Shown: positions 2,477 through 57,047 of the stretch, one piece after another
Numbering within the stretch: the stretch's first letter is position 1
Layout: each line of letters starts with the position of its first letter
Notes under the pieces: generated by a model
Seen by the model: only the letters and a program-made list of their open reading frames with translations
Databases searched by the model: none
What the model was told of the DNA's origin: nothing
Program-made: the position numbers and the translations under genes
Origin: an uncultured Spirochaetaceae bacterium
Lineage (GTDB): Bacteria; Myxococcota_A; UBA9160; UBA4427
Assembly: GCA_964488255.1 (NCBI GenBank)
Contig: CAZAUR010000009.1
Location: 81,581-145,580 of the forward strand
DNA length: 64,000 nt
Direction of reading: 5' to 3'

Positions 2477-3748
2477 TCAGTCCGTCTCGTTCCAGCGCGC
2501 CGGATAGAGCGGGAACTCGCGGCAGAGATCCGCGACCTCGTCGCGCACCGTCGCGAGGAGCTCGGCGTTCTCGTGGTCGTTCAGGACGCGCGCCAGGAAG
2601 TCGCCGATCTGCGCCATCTCGCCCTCGCGCATACCGCGGGTCGTGACCGCCGGCGTGCCGACCCGGACGCCGGAGGTGACCGCGGGCTTGCGCGGGTCGA
2701 AGGGGATCATGTTCTTGTTCGCGGTGATGCCCGCCTGGTCGAGGGAGATCTGGGCGGCCTTGCCCGTCACTTCGCGACCGACCAGGGAGAGCAGGAAGAG
2801 ATGGTTGTCCGTCCCGCCGGACACGACCTTGAAGTCCTTGCTCAGCACCGAATCCGACAGCGCCTTCGAGTTGGCCACGATCTGCTCGCAGTAGGCACGG
2901 AAGTCCGGCGCGAGCGCCTCCTTGAAGGCGACCGCCTTTCCGGCGATCACGTGCATGAGCGGTCCGCCCTGCAGGCCGGGGAAGACGGCGCTGTTCAGCT
3001 TCTTCTTCCACTCTTCGTCGCAGAGGATCAGGCCGCCGCGCGGTCCGCGCAGCGTCTTGTGCGTCGTGGTCGTGACGATGTGCGCCTTGCCGACCGGGCT
3101 CGGGTGGACGCCCGCAGCGACCAGGCCGGCGATGTGTGCGATGTCGGCGAAGAGGACGGCGTCCACCTCGTCGGCGATCGACCGGAAGGCGTCGAAGTCG
3201 ATCGTCCGCGAATAGGCGGTCGCACCGCACTGGATCATCTGCGGGCGATGTTCGAGGGCGAGCTCGCGCAGCTTGTCGTAGTCGATGCGCTCGTCTTCCT
3301 CGGTCACTCCGTAGGGCACGATCGTGAAGTGCTTGCCCGAGAAGTTCACGGGGCTGCCGTGGGTCAGGTGGCCGCCGTGGTCGAGGTTCATCGCGAGGAC
3401 GGTGTCGCCGCGATTCAGGACCGCCTCGTAGACCGCCGCGTTCGCCTGGCTGCCGGAATGCGGCTGGACGTTCGCGTGGTCGGCGCCAAAGAGCTCCTTC
3501 GCACGCGCGATCGCGATCTCCTCGATCTCGTCGACCTCTTCGCAGCCGCCGTAGTAGCGCCGACCGGGGTAGCCCTCGGCGTACTTGTTCGTGAGCACCG
3601 AGCCGACCGCTTCGAGCACGGCATCGGAGACGAAGTTCTCGCTCGCGATCAGCTCGATCGAGAGGCCCTGACGGCGGCCTTCGCGACGCACGAACTTCGC
3701 GACGTCCGGATCGGTCCGATCCAGATGGGGGGTGATGGATTGGGACAT
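2477..3748 (-). CDS. glyA: Serine hydroxymethyltransferase
   Basis: 423-aa ORF with [22 protein letters not shown] and the [17 protein letters not shown]-lysine region. Confidence 0.97.
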
Positions 3749-13825: not shown

Positions 13826-13833
13826 TTCGCGCG

Positions 13834-13867
13834 CCGCAGGCGCTGGTTGGCCGCAGGCGCTGGTTGG
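13834..13867. repeat. 17-bp direct tandem repeat (2 copies plus a partial third)
   Basis: ccgcaggcgctggttgg occurs at 13834-13850 and 13851-13867, then ccgcgggcgc. Confidence 0.8.
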
Positions 13868-13990
13868 CCGCGGGCGCTTGCGGGTCGCGACTGCTTCCGA
13901 CTCGAAGCCACGCGGCCCCCACCCTTCTCACCTGCGCTCAGCACCCTTCGAGTAGCGCGCCGCCGTTCCCCACGCCGATTGGATCCGCCT

Positions 13991-34933: not shown

Positions 34934-37785
<2,852 letters not shown>

Positions 37786-39693: not shown

Positions 39694-41100
39694 CTAACTG
39701 AGGGGTCGTAGCCACGTTCGGCCGCCGTCCCGCGTGCGCGCCAGGTGACCGTCATCACCCACGCGCCAGCCGCTCTGCCCATCGGGCTCGAACGCGACGT
39801 CTCGCAGGGCAGCGAAGCCCGGCGTTGCGCTCGAAACCGGCTCGAAGCGCCAGTCGTCCGAGTCGGGAGCGCCGCGGAAGGCCTGGCCTTGTCGACCGAC
39901 CGCGATGACGCCGTCCGGCGTCCGCGCGATCGCGAGAAGCGCATGGGACCCCGGCTGCGCGGCGACCCGGAGCGGGCCGACCTCGCCCTCCCCCACGAAG
40001 ATCCGTCCGCGATCGTCGCCTGCGACGAGCCCGGCCGCGGTCACGACGACCGAGCGCAACGAAACACTCTCGCGCGCCTTCACCGTCGCGCTCGGAACGG
40101 GCGCGAGCCGCCCACGCCAATAGCGCGCGAGGAGCCCGGGGTCGTCGTCGAGGAAGTCCTCGTAGCCCCAGGGTGGTGCCCCGAAGATTTCGATGGCCGA
40201 CGCCTCGACGCCCGCGGCTTCGAGTCGCGCGGCGAGCTCCCGGGTCCGCGCTTCGATCCGATCGAAGAGCGCGCTGGGATCCTGGTCCTCCGCATAACGT
40301 CGGATCTCCTCGCGCGTGACGAACGCTTCGACCCGCCACGCAACCGGAAAGCGCGCGAGCGTCTCGGCCGTTCCCTGCAAGCGGTCGGCGTCCTCACGCG
40401 TGAGGTCGACACCGCCGACGCGAAAGCGGAAGGTCGGCAGCCCGGCCGGGTCCCCGATCGATCGCGACGCGAGCACGTCGGTCGCGGGGTCGATCGCGAC
40501 GACCCCGTCGCCGACGGCCCAGCATCGGGGCAGCGGCTGCGAGGCGCAGTCGACCGCTACCAGCGCCTTCGGAGCGGGCACGTCCGGGTCGGCCTCCGGA
40601 CGCGCTGCACGCCACAGGCCACCGCCGTCCACGGTCGCGAGCCAGCGGCCTTCCGAGGCGAGCACGACGGCGCGCCGGGCGTCGATCGCCGCGACGGCGT
40701 GGAGGGGCCAGTCGTCCGCGCGGCCGGGCAGCCTCTGGCGTTCCCATCTCGCGCCGCCGTCCTCGGTCCGCAGGAGCGTTCCCGGGCCGACCGCCCAGCC
40801 GTGGATCGCGTCGGCCATCACGACGTCGGTCAGTCCGGAGACGGGCGGCGTCCGCCCGCGCGACCATGAAGCGCCGCCATCGGTGGTGCGGAACAAGCGG
40901 CCGTCCGCGCTGGCCACGATCGCCTGTCCCGACGCAGGGGCAGCGACCCCGACGAGGTCACCGCTCGGGTGGATCGGCGCAGGCCTGGCTTCGGTTTCCT
41001 CGGCATCGTCGCCGCACGCGAGGGCGAGCCCCACGACCCCCAGCCCGGCGAGGGCCAGCCGCTTCGCGTTCGACGATCTGGGCGATCGCTGCGTTCGCAT
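39694..41100 (-). CDS. BNR/Asp-box repeat lipoprotein (Ycf48-like beta-propeller)
   Basis: Lipobox GLALACG. Four Asp-box-like motifs: TTDGGASW, TEDGGARW, TVDGGGLW and TRDGGRTW. Start at ATG 41100. Confidence 0.7.
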   Translation of the reverse strand: MRTQRSPRSSNAKRLALAGLGVVGLALACGDDAEETEARPAPIHPSGDLVGVAAPASGQAIVASADGRLFRTTDGGASWSRGRTPPVSGLTDVVMADAIHGWAVGPGTLLRTEDGGARWERQRLPGRADDWPLHAVAAIDARRAVVLASEGRWLATVDGGGLWRAARPEADPDVPAPKALVAVDCASQPLPRCWAVGDGVVAIDPATDVLASRSIGDPAGLPTFRFRVGGVDLTREDADRLQGTAETLARFPVAWRVEAFVTREEIRRYAEDQDPSALFDRIEARTRELAARLEAAGVEASAIEIFGAPPWGYEDFLDDDPGLLARYWRGRLAPVPSATVKARESVSLRSVVVTAAGLVAGDDRGRIFVGEGEVGPLRVAAQPGSHALLAIARTPDGVIAVGRQGQAFRGAPDSDDWRFEPVSSATPGFAALRDVAFEPDGQSGWRVGDDGHLARTRDGGRTWLRPLS

Positions 41101-41156
41101 CGGCGCGGAGGATACTGCCCCGGCCGCGCGACCCAAAGCCGCGCGAGCGCTGATCG

Positions 41157-42104
41157 CTACGCGCTCGCCATCGCGAGGCGCATCGACGTCACGCGGCCGA
41201 GCCCGCCGTCCTCGACACACACGGACTCGCCGCCCATCTGCGCGAGCCCCTGCTGGACGGCCTCGGGCGGATGGCCGGTCGGACCGCGGCGATCCGTGTC
41301 CGGGACGTCCACGACCGAGACGAGCACGCCCGTCGGACGGTCGCCGCCGATCGTGCGGGCCAGGATCGTGATCGGCTGGTCCGGCTTCGCTTCGTCGATC
41401 CGCTGGCGGACCAGCTGCGACAGAAGACGCTCGAACACGACGGTCGCGCCGGAGGCACGCGGCAGGTTCGGCGGCATCAGCACCTCGAGGTCGACGCTGG
41501 AGGGCACTTCCTGCGCGACGCGCTCGGTCACGCGCATGATCGCGTTCGCAACGTCGAAGCGACCCTGCTGTGCCTTGCCGCCCCGCAGCGCCACCGACAG
41601 CTCGCGCAGCCATTTCTGGGCGGTCTCGAGCTGGCGCAGACCCGTTTCCATCAGCTGGTGCTGCGCGTCGTTGAGCCGACCGTCGAGCTGCTCCGAGAGC
41701 GTGGATATCGCCTTGAGCGCGTCCGCGATCGGCTCCCCGAGCTCGTCGGCGAGGCTCGTGAGGGGCTCCTCGTTCGACTGCTCCTCGAGCATCACCATCA
41801 CGACGCCGACGCGATCGTCCTCGGCTTCGATCGGAGAACACAATCCGGTGTAGGCATGACCACCTTCGCGGATCTGCAGACGCGCGGCCTGGCCGCGCTG
41901 CAGCACCTGCGCGGTCGCGGTCAGCACGACCTCGCGCGCGCCGCCGCCGAAGACCATCGCCAGGGGCTCGCCGACGGGGTCCTCGTCCATGGGGCAGAAG
42001 CGCTCGCGGAACGACGGGTTCGCGTAGACGACACAACCCTCGGGATCGCCCACGAGGATCGGTGCGTCGAGATGACCGAGTAGTGAGATCTCTTCAGCGC
42101 CCAT
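41157..42104 (-). CDS. PAS domain protein with a histidine-kinase-like C-terminal ATPase fold (no clear H-box)
   Basis: PAS-like ILVGDPEGCVVYANPSFRERF, a helical linker and an HATPase-like C-terminus (ITILARTIGG...VLVSVVDVPD...GLGRV). ATG 42104 is preferred; a GTG at 42176 would read through the 38-bp repeats. Confidence 0.6.
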   Translation of the reverse strand: MGAEEISLLGHLDAPILVGDPEGCVVYANPSFRERFCPMDEDPVGEPLAMVFGGGAREVVLTATAQVLQRGQAARLQIREGGHAYTGLCSPIEAEDDRVGVVMVMLEEQSNEEPLTSLADELGEPIADALKAISTLSEQLDGRLNDAQHQLMETGLRQLETAQKWLRELSVALRGGKAQQGRFDVANAIMRVTERVAQEVPSSVDLEVLMPPNLPRASGATVVFERLLSQLVRQRIDEAKPDQPITILARTIGGDRPTGVLVSVVDVPDTDRRGPTGHPPEAVQQGLAQMGGESVCVEDGGLGRVTSMRLAMASA

Positions 42105-42106
42105 CA

Positions 42107-42206
42107 GTCCCACTCCAGGATGCCGGCTTCGGCAACACTCATTCGTCCCACTCCAGGATGCCGGCTTCGGCAACACTCATTCGTTCCACTCCAGGATGCC
42201 GGCTTC
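42107..42206 (-). repeat. 38-bp tandem repeat (2 full copies plus a 24-nt third) spanning a gene junction
   Basis: The minus-strand unit GAAGCCGGCATCCTGGAGTGG(A/G)ACGAATGAGTGTTGCC lies at 42206-42169 and 42168-42131, with a partial copy at 42130-42107. The two full copies differ at one base. Confidence 0.9.
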
Positions 42207-42743
42207 GTGCATGCGGTGGACCGAGCGCAGCGCCTCGAACCGGTCCATGCCGGAGACCGAGACCAGGTCCGAGAGAGGCGTCATGCCGTCGACCATCGAG
42301 AGCAGGAAACCCGCGGAGGGCGGAAGGTTGCGACCCTGGAGATCCCCGCCGTCCCCCACGACCCGCGGCACCTGCGACAGGTCACCGAGCTCCGCGAGGT
42401 AGCCGCGAAAGAGCCGCGCCCGCAGGAGCTCGATCATCGCCTCCACGTCGAGCTGCCCGTTCGCGGGCACGCTCGTCAGCAGCTCGAGACCGGCTTCCTC
42501 GTTCTCGGCGTGCACCAGGCGTCGCGCGTCCTCGACGATCGAGGTCGAGGCATCCAGCGACTCGCCGCGCGGCTTCGACCGACGATCGGCGTCGCGGATG
42601 TAGTCGAGGGCTTCCTCGTTGCCGGGATCGAGCTCGAGCGCCTCGTTCCAGAGCATGAACGCGTGTGCGACGTCTCCAGTGCCGTAGCACTCGAGACCCT
42701 GCTGCAGCAGCGTCGCCACCTTGTCTTCGTTCGCTTGCGTCAT
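42177..42743 (-). CDS. Small TPR-like protein sharing a C-terminal about 45-aa domain with the J-protein N-terminus
   Basis: 188 aa. N-terminal TPR-like LLQQGLECYGTGDVAHAFMLWNEALELDPGNEEAL. C-terminal SAGFLLSMVDGMTPLSDLVSVSGMDRFEALRSVHRMHEAGILE aligns with [43 protein letters not shown] in the J-protein. Confidence 0.6.
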   Translation of the reverse strand: MTQANEDKVATLLQQGLECYGTGDVAHAFMLWNEALELDPGNEEALDYIRDADRRSKPRGESLDASTSIVEDARRLVHAENEEAGLELLTSVPANGQLDVEAMIELLRARLFRGYLAELGDLSQVPRVVGDGGDLQGRNLPPSAGFLLSMVDGMTPLSDLVSVSGMDRFEALRSVHRMHEAGILEWNE

Positions 42744-42792
42744 CGGCCGTCCCTGGCTCGGAGAGAGCGAGTGATTGGGATCGCTGCTTCGA

Positions 42793-44360
<1,568 letters not shown>

Positions 44361-55418: not shown

Positions 55419-57047
55419 TCAGTTCTGGGCGAGGGTCCGATCGACGACCGGCCGAACCGAGTCCCCGACGGCGATCTCGCGATCGGCGTAGAGCACGAAG
55501 GCGACGGAGCTCTCGGCGTCGACGGTGACGACCACGAGGGTCGCGACCGGCGTATCCGGCGTGCGCACGTCGACGCGTCGCTCGCGTTCGTTGAAGATCC
55601 GGCCGCTCGCGAAGACCTCGAGCTCGCTGCCGACCTCGAGGCCGTGGAACTCGCCGCGGTTCAGGTAGACGTACTCGCCGTCCGCCGCGAGGGTGCGATC
55701 CGACGGCAGGTAGACGACCTGACCATCGATCGCGTCCGGCGTCGACCGTAGGGACACGCGGCGCGGGAGCTGCTCCCGAACCATGATGCGCGCGCCGCGT
55801 CGGAACTCGGAGTAGGACTGGCGGATCTCCGCGATCGACGTGTCGCCGGTCAGCTCCTTCACCTCGAGCCAGCCGAGGTTCTCGACGTGATGGCCGAGGA
55901 GTCGGTTGGTCTCGATGTCGCGGACGTCGCCGAGGATCTCGAAGATCATGTACTGGTCGCCGACCTCGGCGTCCCCTTCTCCGATCCCGACGAAGACCTC
56001 GTCTCCCGCGGACAGGAAGGTCCGCGGCGAGGGGCTCTCGACGATCGTCGACGCGCCCTGCACGGCGTCCGTCGAGACGAAGCCGTACGAGTCACGGCGC
56101 GCGATCGTGATCGCACGACCGGCGGGTTGGGCGCTCGGCTCCTCGCCGGGAATCGCGACCGGGAACGCGTCGAGGGTCGACGGGTCGTCCTCGAGCACGG
56201 GCTCCATCGCCGCCAGGGGCGCAGGCTCTTCTTCGACCGAAATCGGCGGCAGCTCTTCGAAGACCGGCGCGTCGGTCGGCGCGGTCTCGTCGACGCTCGC
56301 CACGGTCTCTTCGACGACGGGTGCTTCGAGGAAGGACTCCGCCTCCGCGTCCGTGACGACGCGCATCTCGTTCGCGGTGATCCAGATCCGGTCCCCGGGC
56401 ACGATCAGGTGCGGGTTCGCGATGTCGTCGTTGTCGATCCAGACCGAGGGCCAGACCCAGGGCGTGCCGAGGTAGGCGGCCGAGAGGTCCCAGAGCGTGT
56501 CGCCGCGGGCGACGGTGTGCAATCGACCCGTGCGACCCCGGTCGTCGACGCCCACCGGACCGAGCACGACGCCGGCGACCGTGGTCGGTGCGGCGGTCTC
56601 GGGCTGGAGCGTGACGCCGGAAACATCGGCTTCGGTGGAATCGGGCGTGGCGATCTCGGCGACGGTGTCGATCGATGCGGGCGCGGCGGCCTCGGCGACG
56701 GTGTCGATCGATGCGGGCGCGGCGGCCTCGGCGACGGTGTCGATCGATGCGGGCGCGGCGGCCTCGGCGACGACCTCGGCCGCGTTCGGATTGCCCTCCT
56801 CGGGCGCGGTCGCCGCGACGACGGTGTCGTCATCGAACGTCGGCGCCGCTTCGGTCGGCTCGGCGACGGTCGCCGGGTCGAACTCGGGATCGTCGAACTG
56901 ATCCCAGGCGAGTGCGTCGTCGGTCGCCGCGGCGGCGGCCGGGACTTCCACCGCGGGTGCAGGCGCTTCGGCCACGTCCTCGGCAACGGCACCCCCGGCG
57001 ATCATCAGGGCCACCAGCGTGACGGAAAAGAGAAGGATTTCCCTCAT
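55419..57047 (-). CDS. LysM peptidoglycan-binding protein, TsaP-like
   Basis: Signal peptide ILLFSVTLVALMIAGGAVA, an acidic Ala/Pro-rich region with three 12-aa repeats and a LysM domain (HTVARGDTLWDLSAAYLGTPWVWPSVWIDNDDIANPHLIVPGDRIWI), then a C-terminal domain of about 300 aa. GGAGGA Shine-Dalgarno precedes ATG 57047. Adjacent to dprA. Confidence 0.75.
   Translation of the reverse strand: MREILLFSVTLVALMIAGGAVAEDVAEAPAPAVEVPAAAAATDDALAWDQFDDPEFDPATVAEPTEAAPTFDDDTVVAATAPEEGNPNAAEVVAEAAAPASIDTVAEAAAPASIDTVAEAAAPASIDTVAEIATPDSTEADVSGVTLQPETAAPTTVAGVVLGPVGVDDRGRTGRLHTVARGDTLWDLSAAYLGTPWVWPSVWIDNDDIANPHLIVPGDRIWITANEMRVVTDAEAESFLEAPVVEETVASVDETAPTDAPVFEELPPISVEEEPAPLAAMEPVLEDDPSTLDAFPVAIPGEEPSAQPAGRAITIARRDSYGFVSTDAVQGASTIVESPSPRTFLSAGDEVFVGIGEGDAEVGDQYMIFEILGDVRDIETNRLLGHHVENLGWLEVKELTGDTSIAEIRQSYSEFRRGARIMVREQLPRRVSLRSTPDAIDGQVVYLPSDRTLAADGEYVYLNRGEFHGLEVGSELEVFASGRIFNERERRVDVRTPDTPVATLVVVTVDAESSVAFVLYADREIAVGDSVRPVVDRTLAQN
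56655..56772. repeat. 36-bp in-frame tandem repeat (3 copies plus a partial) inside the LysM gene
   Basis: ctcggcgacggtgtcgatcgatgcgggcgcggcggc occurs three times and encodes ASIDTVAEAAAP. Confidence 0.85.

Follow-up and report, generated by a model that had tools for sequence, protein, structure and literature searches.

The closest described system to the locus reported here is the mycobacterial interspersed repetitive unit (MIRU), known for example from senX3-regX3 as 77-bp and 53-bp tandem units, of which H37Rv holds three of 77 bp and CDC1551 two of 77 bp together with one of 53 bp (Supply et al. 1997, as summarised in PMC12548453, PMC3184786 and PMC4213456). Our window is a 64-kb stretch of DNA (64,000 nt; positions 81,581 to 145,580 of contig CAZAUR010000009.1, assembly GCA_964488255.1) from an uncultured bacterium placed by GTDB in the Myxococcota_A, and the element in question is a 38-nt tandem unit, present in 2.6 copies on the minus strand (42206-42107) between a gene for a 188-aa protein and a PAS-domain gene. 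As the cited summaries describe MIRUs, both they and the array are tandem units of tens of base pairs between co-transcribed genes, both carry in each unit a small open reading frame (ORF) whose start and stop overlap its neighbours, and both are polymorphic in copy number between strains, the extra units here numbering none in the relative L005, one in L001-L004, L153-L158 and L086, and two in the window and L006 (L numbers designate related loci). The size range summarised for MIRUs, ~40-100 bp (PMC3184786), takes in the 38-nt unit at its lower edge. According to the same source MIRUs form a dispersed family of ~40-50 loci per genome, presumed to be mobile and without sequence relation to their flanks, whereas the unit described here is made from the flanking genes' own codons and has its sole locus within the 64-kb window at this junction. 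Furthermore, the senX3-regX3 MIRU region is summarised as having promoter activity, while nothing promoter-like was found here by scan. On this comparison, the array may be regarded as a locally born counterpart of the MIRU.

Simple-sequence contingency loci, which bring about phase variation by slipped-strand mispairing, resemble the array in a period that is not a multiple of 3, in variable copy number and in the probable involvement of slippage; they differ in that the unit here is 38 nt long, its copies are few, it lies outside both coding sequences and no frame is switched off. A change of copy number at a contingency locus switches expression through frame or promoter spacing, whereas the junction here keeps the same logic at zero, one and two extra units. 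Termination-reinitiation at ATGA or TGATG (Huber et al. 2019, PMC6728339; PMC10666635) offers a further likeness in its -4 and -1 overlaps and in a GGAG within the 3' end of the preceding ORF. Indeed, a plain ATGA or GTGA overlap, the ancestral condition, is found at ~78/101 orthologous junctions of uncultured Myxococcota, and the links in the window are -4, -4 and -1; however, where classical coupling joins two real genes by one overlap, three overlaps here stand in series by way of two filler ORFs of 12-13 codons. That a short ORF may serve only to deliver ribosomes is already recognised, and the idea extends to bicistronic design cassettes (PMC12548453); the likeness would lie in a short ORF that brings a ribosome to an overlapping downstream start; such upstream ORFs belong to transcript 5' leaders or are engineered, whereas the fillers here lie between natural cistrons and were born by duplication. 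The array is new as a locally born junction repeat with putatively coupled filler ORFs, and is not a new mechanism.

Read along the minus strand, the array runs ...CAC, unit 1, unit 2, a 24-mer, and then TGATGG / TGATGGGCGCTGAAGAG... (Table 1). Unit 1 takes in the final 9 upstream codons with their stop TGA (42179-42177), an ATG (42180-42178) and the spacer GTGTTGCC; unit 2 departs from it by a single base, A to G (AAC to GAC), and the partial unit 3 makes up the 5' region of the PAS gene. Tandem Repeats Finder reports the array at 42107-42207 with a period of 38, 2.7 copies, 98% matches and a score of 195, which is among the two highest of the window. In a rotated register, the 38-mer GAATGAGTGTTGCCGAAGCCGGCATCCTGGAGTGGGAC occurs twice with zero mismatch (38/38 identity) and at no other site in the window, and 0/100 shuffles of the window gave a match. 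An earlier note on this DNA, made from its letters alone, had described a tandem duplication whose two full copies differ at one base; the reported array and the two mismatch-free rotated 38-mers bear out the duplication, and the AAC and GAC codons the single difference.

The stop and start signals of the array form a chain. The upstream TGA (42179-42177) overlaps the ATG at 42180 of mini-ORF 1, the stop of mini-ORF 1 is in turn overlapped by the ATG of mini-ORF 2, and the TGA of mini-ORF 2 shares the A at 42104 with the PAS ATG, giving ATGA, ATGA and TGATG (-4, -4, -1) in order. Both mini-peptides carry the same EAGILEW as the conserved upstream C-terminus, and the distance from the upstream stop to the PAS ATG is 72 nt in the window and 34-39 nt in the lineages with one extra unit. 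This is the chain of two mini-ORFs that the earlier note had set out, and every one of its positions proves exact. As reading frames, the two mini-ORFs are probably meaningless.

The composition of the unit points to its origin. In its first 24 nt it carries the last eight upstream sense codons (EAGILEW-D/N), and its remaining 14 nt, GAATGAGTGTTGCC, hold the last upstream codon, the stop and, overlapping the stop as ATGA, the codons ATG AGT GTT GCC. These four codons (MSVA) are the first four of the ancestral PAS start: at plain-overlap junctions the PAS protein begins MSxAEE(I)SLLGHL, the junction ATGAGCGTGGCCGAAGAG of L019 and L092 encodes MSVAEE in agreement with the MSVA of the unit, and the spacer followed by the border motif, ATGAGTGTTGCC-GAAG, is the ancestral PAS start itself (MSVAE). 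By these correspondences, the unit is a copy of the entire stop/start overlap junction, including the GGAG 8 nt before each ATG. The earlier description of the unit as the repeated 3' end of the upstream gene is right for the upstream codons and falls short for the unit as a whole, since the PAS ATG, the first four PAS codons and the GGAG are included.

The borders of the unit are CAC/GAA GCC on the left and GCC/GAA GAG on the right, each a Glu-codon boundary in the frame of its own gene and both GAAG. The right-border GAAG (42092-42095) pairs with that of the left border (42206-42203) as the microhomology framing the unit, and in unduplicated relatives such as L017 two GAAG motifs lie exactly 38 nt apart; the period of 38 is thus the microhomology distance, as expected for slippage. 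Because the borders fall on Glu-codon boundaries, MSVA+EAGILEWDE* is in frame by construction and ends at the ATGA of the next unit. The 3n-1 period likewise follows from the ATGA overlap and the in-phase borders, and is not a separate feature. Recombination between divergent alleles was considered as an origin and rejected, as separate trees for the Hsp70 end, the 188-aa gene and the PAS gene give no sign of a chimeric locus; on either side of the junction, L001 is the relative with which the window groups.

Short tandem repeats are prone to mis-assembly, and an exact copy number is hard to obtain when k-mers are shorter than the array, but the probability that this array is an assembly or sequencing artefact is negligible. 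The identical array is present in an independent Joint Genome Institute (JGI) assembly (Ga0114934_10015164; L006/L149). Logan contigs from three independent runs (SRR5211068, SRR6056609 and SRR6056610) end at ...GCCGGCATCCT or begin at GTTGCCGAAGCC...GGGACTGATGG, which are the two k=31 de Bruijn branch nodes that a 2.6-copy array makes, whereas a 1.6-copy array would make neither; these graph-break contigs also carry the single-nucleotide polymorphism of unit 1. Furthermore, homologous arrays with one extra unit and with substitutions of their own were found in 11 further contigs that differ in sample and assembler. The earlier note had named read-level evidence of an artefact as a possible refutation, and the check came out against an artefact, with an identical JGI contig and with Logan breaks at the nodes expected of at least two full units.

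The duplication is found in four lineages, which have one or two extra units each. The window and L006 (the JGI contig) have two; L001-L004 have one, with a period of 41 (mini-ORF MTVTEAGILEWD); L153-L158, which are six contigs from six samples, have one with a period of 38 (MSVVEAGILESD); and L086 has one (MRFAEAGIREWD). All five of the mini-ORFs in these lineages are intact, and their stop-start links are all at -4, -1 or +1. Flanking-gene identity among the window, L001 and L153 is 92-95% (~7% diverged), so the first duplication, being shared across these lineages, is old, and the second, given the 38/38 identity of the rotated units in the window, is recent; 'recent or conserved', as the duplication had been called, turns out to hold in both senses. 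In L086 (~80% identical), at 3040-3110, the intergenic 24-mer is 23/24 identical to that of the window, and the genic copy of L086 itself differs from this intergenic 24-mer at 5/24.

Units have also been lost as well as gained, on a strain-level time scale, as L005 indicates. This relative has zero extra units (GAC GAA TGA GCG CTG AAG, a plain ATGA overlap), nests within the duplication-bearing clade with 98-100% bootstrap, and is 99.2% identical to L153 over 1,513 nt, with 1 difference in the first ~1.25 kb. Between the same two loci, 4 differences fall in the last 45 nt of the 188-aa gene, in addition to the 38-nt unit, and the differences thus cluster at the repeat. In a neighbouring clade (L009, L085, L087, L143-L148) the overlap is lost: the upstream protein ends EWD*, and the junction reads TGA, 1-6 variable nt and ATG GGC GCY GAA G, a start that is the same derived sequence as the last unit of the window, TGATGGGCGCT. 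It is the only sizeable clade with a non-overlapping junction, and it groups with the duplication-bearing lineages, with modest support only; we infer, short of proof, that it may descend from a duplicated ancestor that collapsed through the 24-mer. The order of clades A, B and C is not resolved in neighbour-joining bootstrap trees. A cluster look-up gave P0122 (ending EWD, clade A) and P0124 as further close relatives.

Substitutions in the array bear on what, if anything, is under selection. Against a four-lineage consensus, the mini-ORFs show 7 non-synonymous codon changes and 1 synonymous change, where random substitution would give ~78% non-synonymous. The changes include W to S (L153) and L to R (L086) at residues conserved in the parent protein, and the N-terminal residues of the mini-peptides vary freely (MSVA, MSVV, MTVT, MRFA); by this pattern the mini-peptides evolve neutrally and are not conserved as peptides. 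When all single substitutions were enumerated, 10-12% of those possible were found to break the relay, and nine changes with zero breaks have a P of about 0.3-0.4, which is no significant selection on relay intactness; the intactness of the relay was dropped as proof of selection for this reason. Across the four lineages, 7/9 changes fall in the 9 nt of codons 2-4 and 2/9 in the 24-mer, and this distribution is suggestive, and only suggestive, of constraint on the 24 nt before the PAS ATG, most simply as a ribosome-binding region.

Taken together, we think it likely that the array is a tandem duplication of a translationally coupled stop/start junction, framed by GAAG microhomology and most likely produced by replication slippage, and that it is tolerated and not demonstrably selected. 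The ancestral state was ...EAGILEWDE-TGA overlapping ATG-AGT-GTT-GCC-GAA-G.. (ATGA, -4). Each unit brings with it the upstream stop, the GGAG in the last upstream codons, and the PAS ATG with its first four codons; each extra unit then encodes an in-frame chimera of PAS residues 1-4 and the C-terminal 8-9 residues of the upstream protein, stopping at the next ATG. The 188-aa protein is unchanged because it still ends in unit 1, and the PAS protein because it still starts after the last unit. A ribosome might stop at TGA 42179-42177, restart at ATG 42180, translate 13 codons and stop on the next ATGA, then restart for 12 codons and terminate on the TGATG at the PAS start; alternatively, ribosomes may load de novo at each copied GGAG-ATG. 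The mini-ORF peptides would have no function of their own, and the array behaves as a small variable-number tandem repeat, with an old first duplication, a recent second one and losses of units besides. Reinitiation after termination in native gene pairs falls steeply with distance and is almost gone at 20-38 nt (PMC10666635), so a bare 72-nt gap would uncouple the two genes where the chain of overlaps would not. On these terms the array would survive because it is self-consistent, each unit re-creating the coupling signals. The coupling ladder proposed in the earlier note is therefore plausible, with 5/5 mini-ORFs intact in four lineages, although that intactness lacks significance as evidence for it.

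Several points weigh against this account. Compared with the spacer, the last junction, TGATGGGCGCT, lacks 3 nt of length and has several substitutions, and by these differences the history of the locus is more than a simple duplication. The intactness of the relay is expected by construction and, at the P given above, is not significant under neutrality. The deletion in L005 has an unexpected register, with the crossover after ATG(A/G)G and not within the perfect 24-mer, and the neighbour-joining trees do not separate a shared from an independent origin of the duplication in L086. Both the translation of the mini-ORFs and the coupling are read from sequence; the PAS gene may be translated from its own GGAG-ATG, independent of any relay, and the repeat may have no effect on PAS expression or a mildly harmful one.

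Perhaps the number of units is instead selected: each added GGAG-ATG-stop module might alter the flow of ribosomes to the PAS gene, and a change in copy number would then work as a rheostat between strains, adjusting how much 188-aa protein is made relative to PAS protein. Such adaptive tuning would fit the occurrence of 0, 1 and 2 extra units among very close relatives, the persistence of an array across ~7% nucleotide divergence, the conservation of the 24-mer before the PAS ATG and not of the spacer, and the strong distance dependence of reinitiation (PMC10666635); the deeply conserved ATGA overlap, at the ~78/101 junctions noted above, also implies that coupling seems to matter. Yet the relay bears no statistical signal of selection, and most lineages, along with the strain-level relative L005, do without the array, which together make tuning unlikely. 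It is conceivable, if doubtful, that the junction repeat serves as an evolutionary device, in which duplication frees the stop from the start, collapse fixes a remodelled junction, and copy number acts as a heritable rheostat on the protein ratio within populations. This would explain why the L009-type clade groups with the duplication-bearing lineages and shares the derived sequence of the last unit; if true, the upstream stop, in the first unit, and the downstream start, in the last unit, could change independently.

The remaining alternatives concern what the array might encode or switch. In the window, and only there, the upstream and PAS genes share a frame that is open for PAS from 42176, directly behind the upstream TGA; the PAS protein might here be extended from GTG 42176 or TTG 42173 (24 extra residues), or fused to the upstream protein by read-through of TGA 42179-42177 (528 aa). 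Either product is quite improbable, given that the upstream and PAS genes of L153 and L001 are in different frames, that the PAS frame of L086 is open for only 39 nt with no start codon in that stretch, that the extra residues would come from reading the repeat out of frame (VLPKPASWSGTNECC...) and show no conservation, and that all relatives start the PAS protein at M(S/G)xAEE. The earlier note had also raised decoy peptides, and the mini-ORFs do repeat the conserved EAGILEW beside operon proteins of the TPR, J-domain and Hsp70 kinds that could bind peptide tails; MSVAEAGILEWD(E) might then imitate the 188-aa C-terminus and, as a competitor, draw away the partner of that protein. We give this very little credence in view of the 7:1 ratio of non-synonymous to synonymous changes, including W to S and L to R at positions conserved in the parent, the free variation of the N-terminal residues, and a C-terminal segment that appears to be part of a folded domain shared with the J-domain protein and not a free linear tail. 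As for a phase-variable junction, also suggested earlier, part of the suggestion stands: a unit is not a whole number of codons long, close relatives differ in copy number (0, 1 or 2 extra), and the relative frame of the two genes changes with that number, two extra units giving the same frame with a single TGA between. A switch in which slippage by one unit shifts the frame and turns the PAS gene on or off is nevertheless very improbable, since every unit carries its own stop and start, since 0, 1 or 2 extra units leave the upstream protein, the PAS protein and the stop-start chain the same, and since the repeat lies outside both coding sequences and has only 2-3 long units, unlike classical contingency tracts.

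Under the favoured explanation of a tolerated junction duplication, the locus may be of use beyond its own operon. Prokaryotic genomes abound in overlapping stop/start junctions, which change only with difficulty, since one mutation hits two genes. Here a whole junction has been duplicated with both proteins unharmed, since a stop, a ribosome-binding motif and a start all come with the copy, and the relatives form a natural series of plain ATGA overlap, one extra unit, two extra units, collapsed junctions and remodelled junctions. Such a series could serve as a test bed for the distance and efficiency of a ribosome relay through serial overlaps, and for the evolution of overlapping junctions. 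Annotators may also take a warning from the locus: repeats of this kind fragment short-read contigs, and the tiny ORFs they generate are not necessarily genes.

Table 1. Positions of the repeat, its signals and the neighbouring genes in the 64-kb window.
Feature	Position	Strand	Details
Repeat unit 1 (genic copy)	42169..42206	-	GAAGCCGGCATCCTGGAGTGGAACGAATGAGTGTTGCC
Repeat unit 2 (full intergenic copy)	42131..42168	-	GAAGCCGGCATCCTGGAGTGGGACGAATGAGTGTTGCC
Partial unit 3	42107..42130	-	24-mer GAAGCCGGCATCCTGGAGTGGGAC (GAAGCC...GGGAC), adjoins PAS start
GGAG (Shine-Dalgarno-like)	42189..42192	-	8 nt before ATG 42180
GGAG, identical	42154-42151	-	8 nt before ATG 42142
GGAG, identical, in partial unit 3	42116-42113	-	8 nt before ATG 42104
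GAAG, right border	42092..42095	-	codons E4-E5 of PAS protein; read from sequence
Mini-ORF 1	42139..42180	-	MSVAEAGILEWDE*, 13 codons; ATG overlaps upstream stop (ATGA, -4)
Mini-ORF 2	42104..42142	-	MSVAEAGILEWD*, 12 codons; ATG overlaps mini-ORF 1 stop (ATGA, -4)
Upstream gene, 188 aa	42177..42743	-	no Pfam family; C-terminus ...HEAGILEWNE*
Downstream gene, 315 aa	41157..42104	-	N-terminal PAS_4 (Pfam, E 9e-8); begins MGAEEISLLGHL
J-domain/TPR protein	45749-44361	-	first listed gene of the minus-strand cluster
Hsp70	44364-42793	-	between the J-domain/TPR gene and the 188-aa gene
BNR-like lipoprotein	starts after 41157	-	next after the PAS_4 gene
GAF-GGDEF protein	39646-38156	-	last listed gene of the cluster

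The repeat interrupts a cluster of overlapping or closely spaced ORFs on the same strand (Table 1), whose order (J-domain/TPR, Hsp70, 188-aa, repeat, PAS_4, lipoprotein, GAF-GGDEF) is kept in relatives and for which the closest named records are 'MAG: Myxococcota bacterium'. The 188-aa protein is conserved in uncultured marine and sediment Myxococcota, with 203 homologues at E<=1e-3 and a C-terminus of the form ...AGI(L/V)EW.. in most of the 120 listed; the PAS gene is called with the same start in relatives. A domain common to two proteins of the cluster (35% identity over 51 aa, pairwise E 4e-5) lies in the N-terminal region of the J-domain/TPR protein and in the C-terminal region of its 188-aa neighbour, and by this alignment the repeated EAGILEW codons appear to belong to the shared domain, which is probably folded. 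A 780-aa ORF at 39694-42036 (minus strand) was set aside as not being a real gene, since over its 5' half it is no more than a high-GC frame shadowing the PAS gene; the genuine gene of that region is the BNR/PSII_BNR-like lipoprotein, which is called as such in relatives.

An RNA element, a promoter or a terminator at the repeat was likewise considered and rejected: a covariance scan with Rfam 15 gave nothing at gathering score over the repeat, the fold of the junction RNA has no excess structure (z = +0.58), and a promoter/terminator scan had no match over the repeat. The only sub-threshold Rfam match in 41000-43000 is to the Xanthomonas sRNA sX9 (41073-41170, plus strand; 26.6 bits against a gathering score of 44, E 0.03), which runs antisense to the PAS/lipoprotein gene boundary and is probably due to chance.

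Three other tandem repeats were noted in the window. At 13833-13878 (plus strand), a 17-nt unit, GCCGCAGGCGCTGGTTG, is repeated 2.7 times at 96% identity in a gap between ORFs. A 36-nt unit at 56642-56772 is repeated 3.6 times, also at 96% identity, inside long ORFs on both strands; with a period divisible by 3, it probably codes in frame for a repeat of 12 residues. At 35944-35983 (minus strand), a gene 3' end is triplicated as 13 nt x 3.1 (GAAGGACTAGCGC / GAAGGACCAGCGC / GAAGGACCAGGGC); a 779-aa ORF (38313-35974) has its TAG stop (35976-35974) within the first unit, and the next two units have CAG instead. This further triplicated gene end in the same window suggests a genome prone to slippage.

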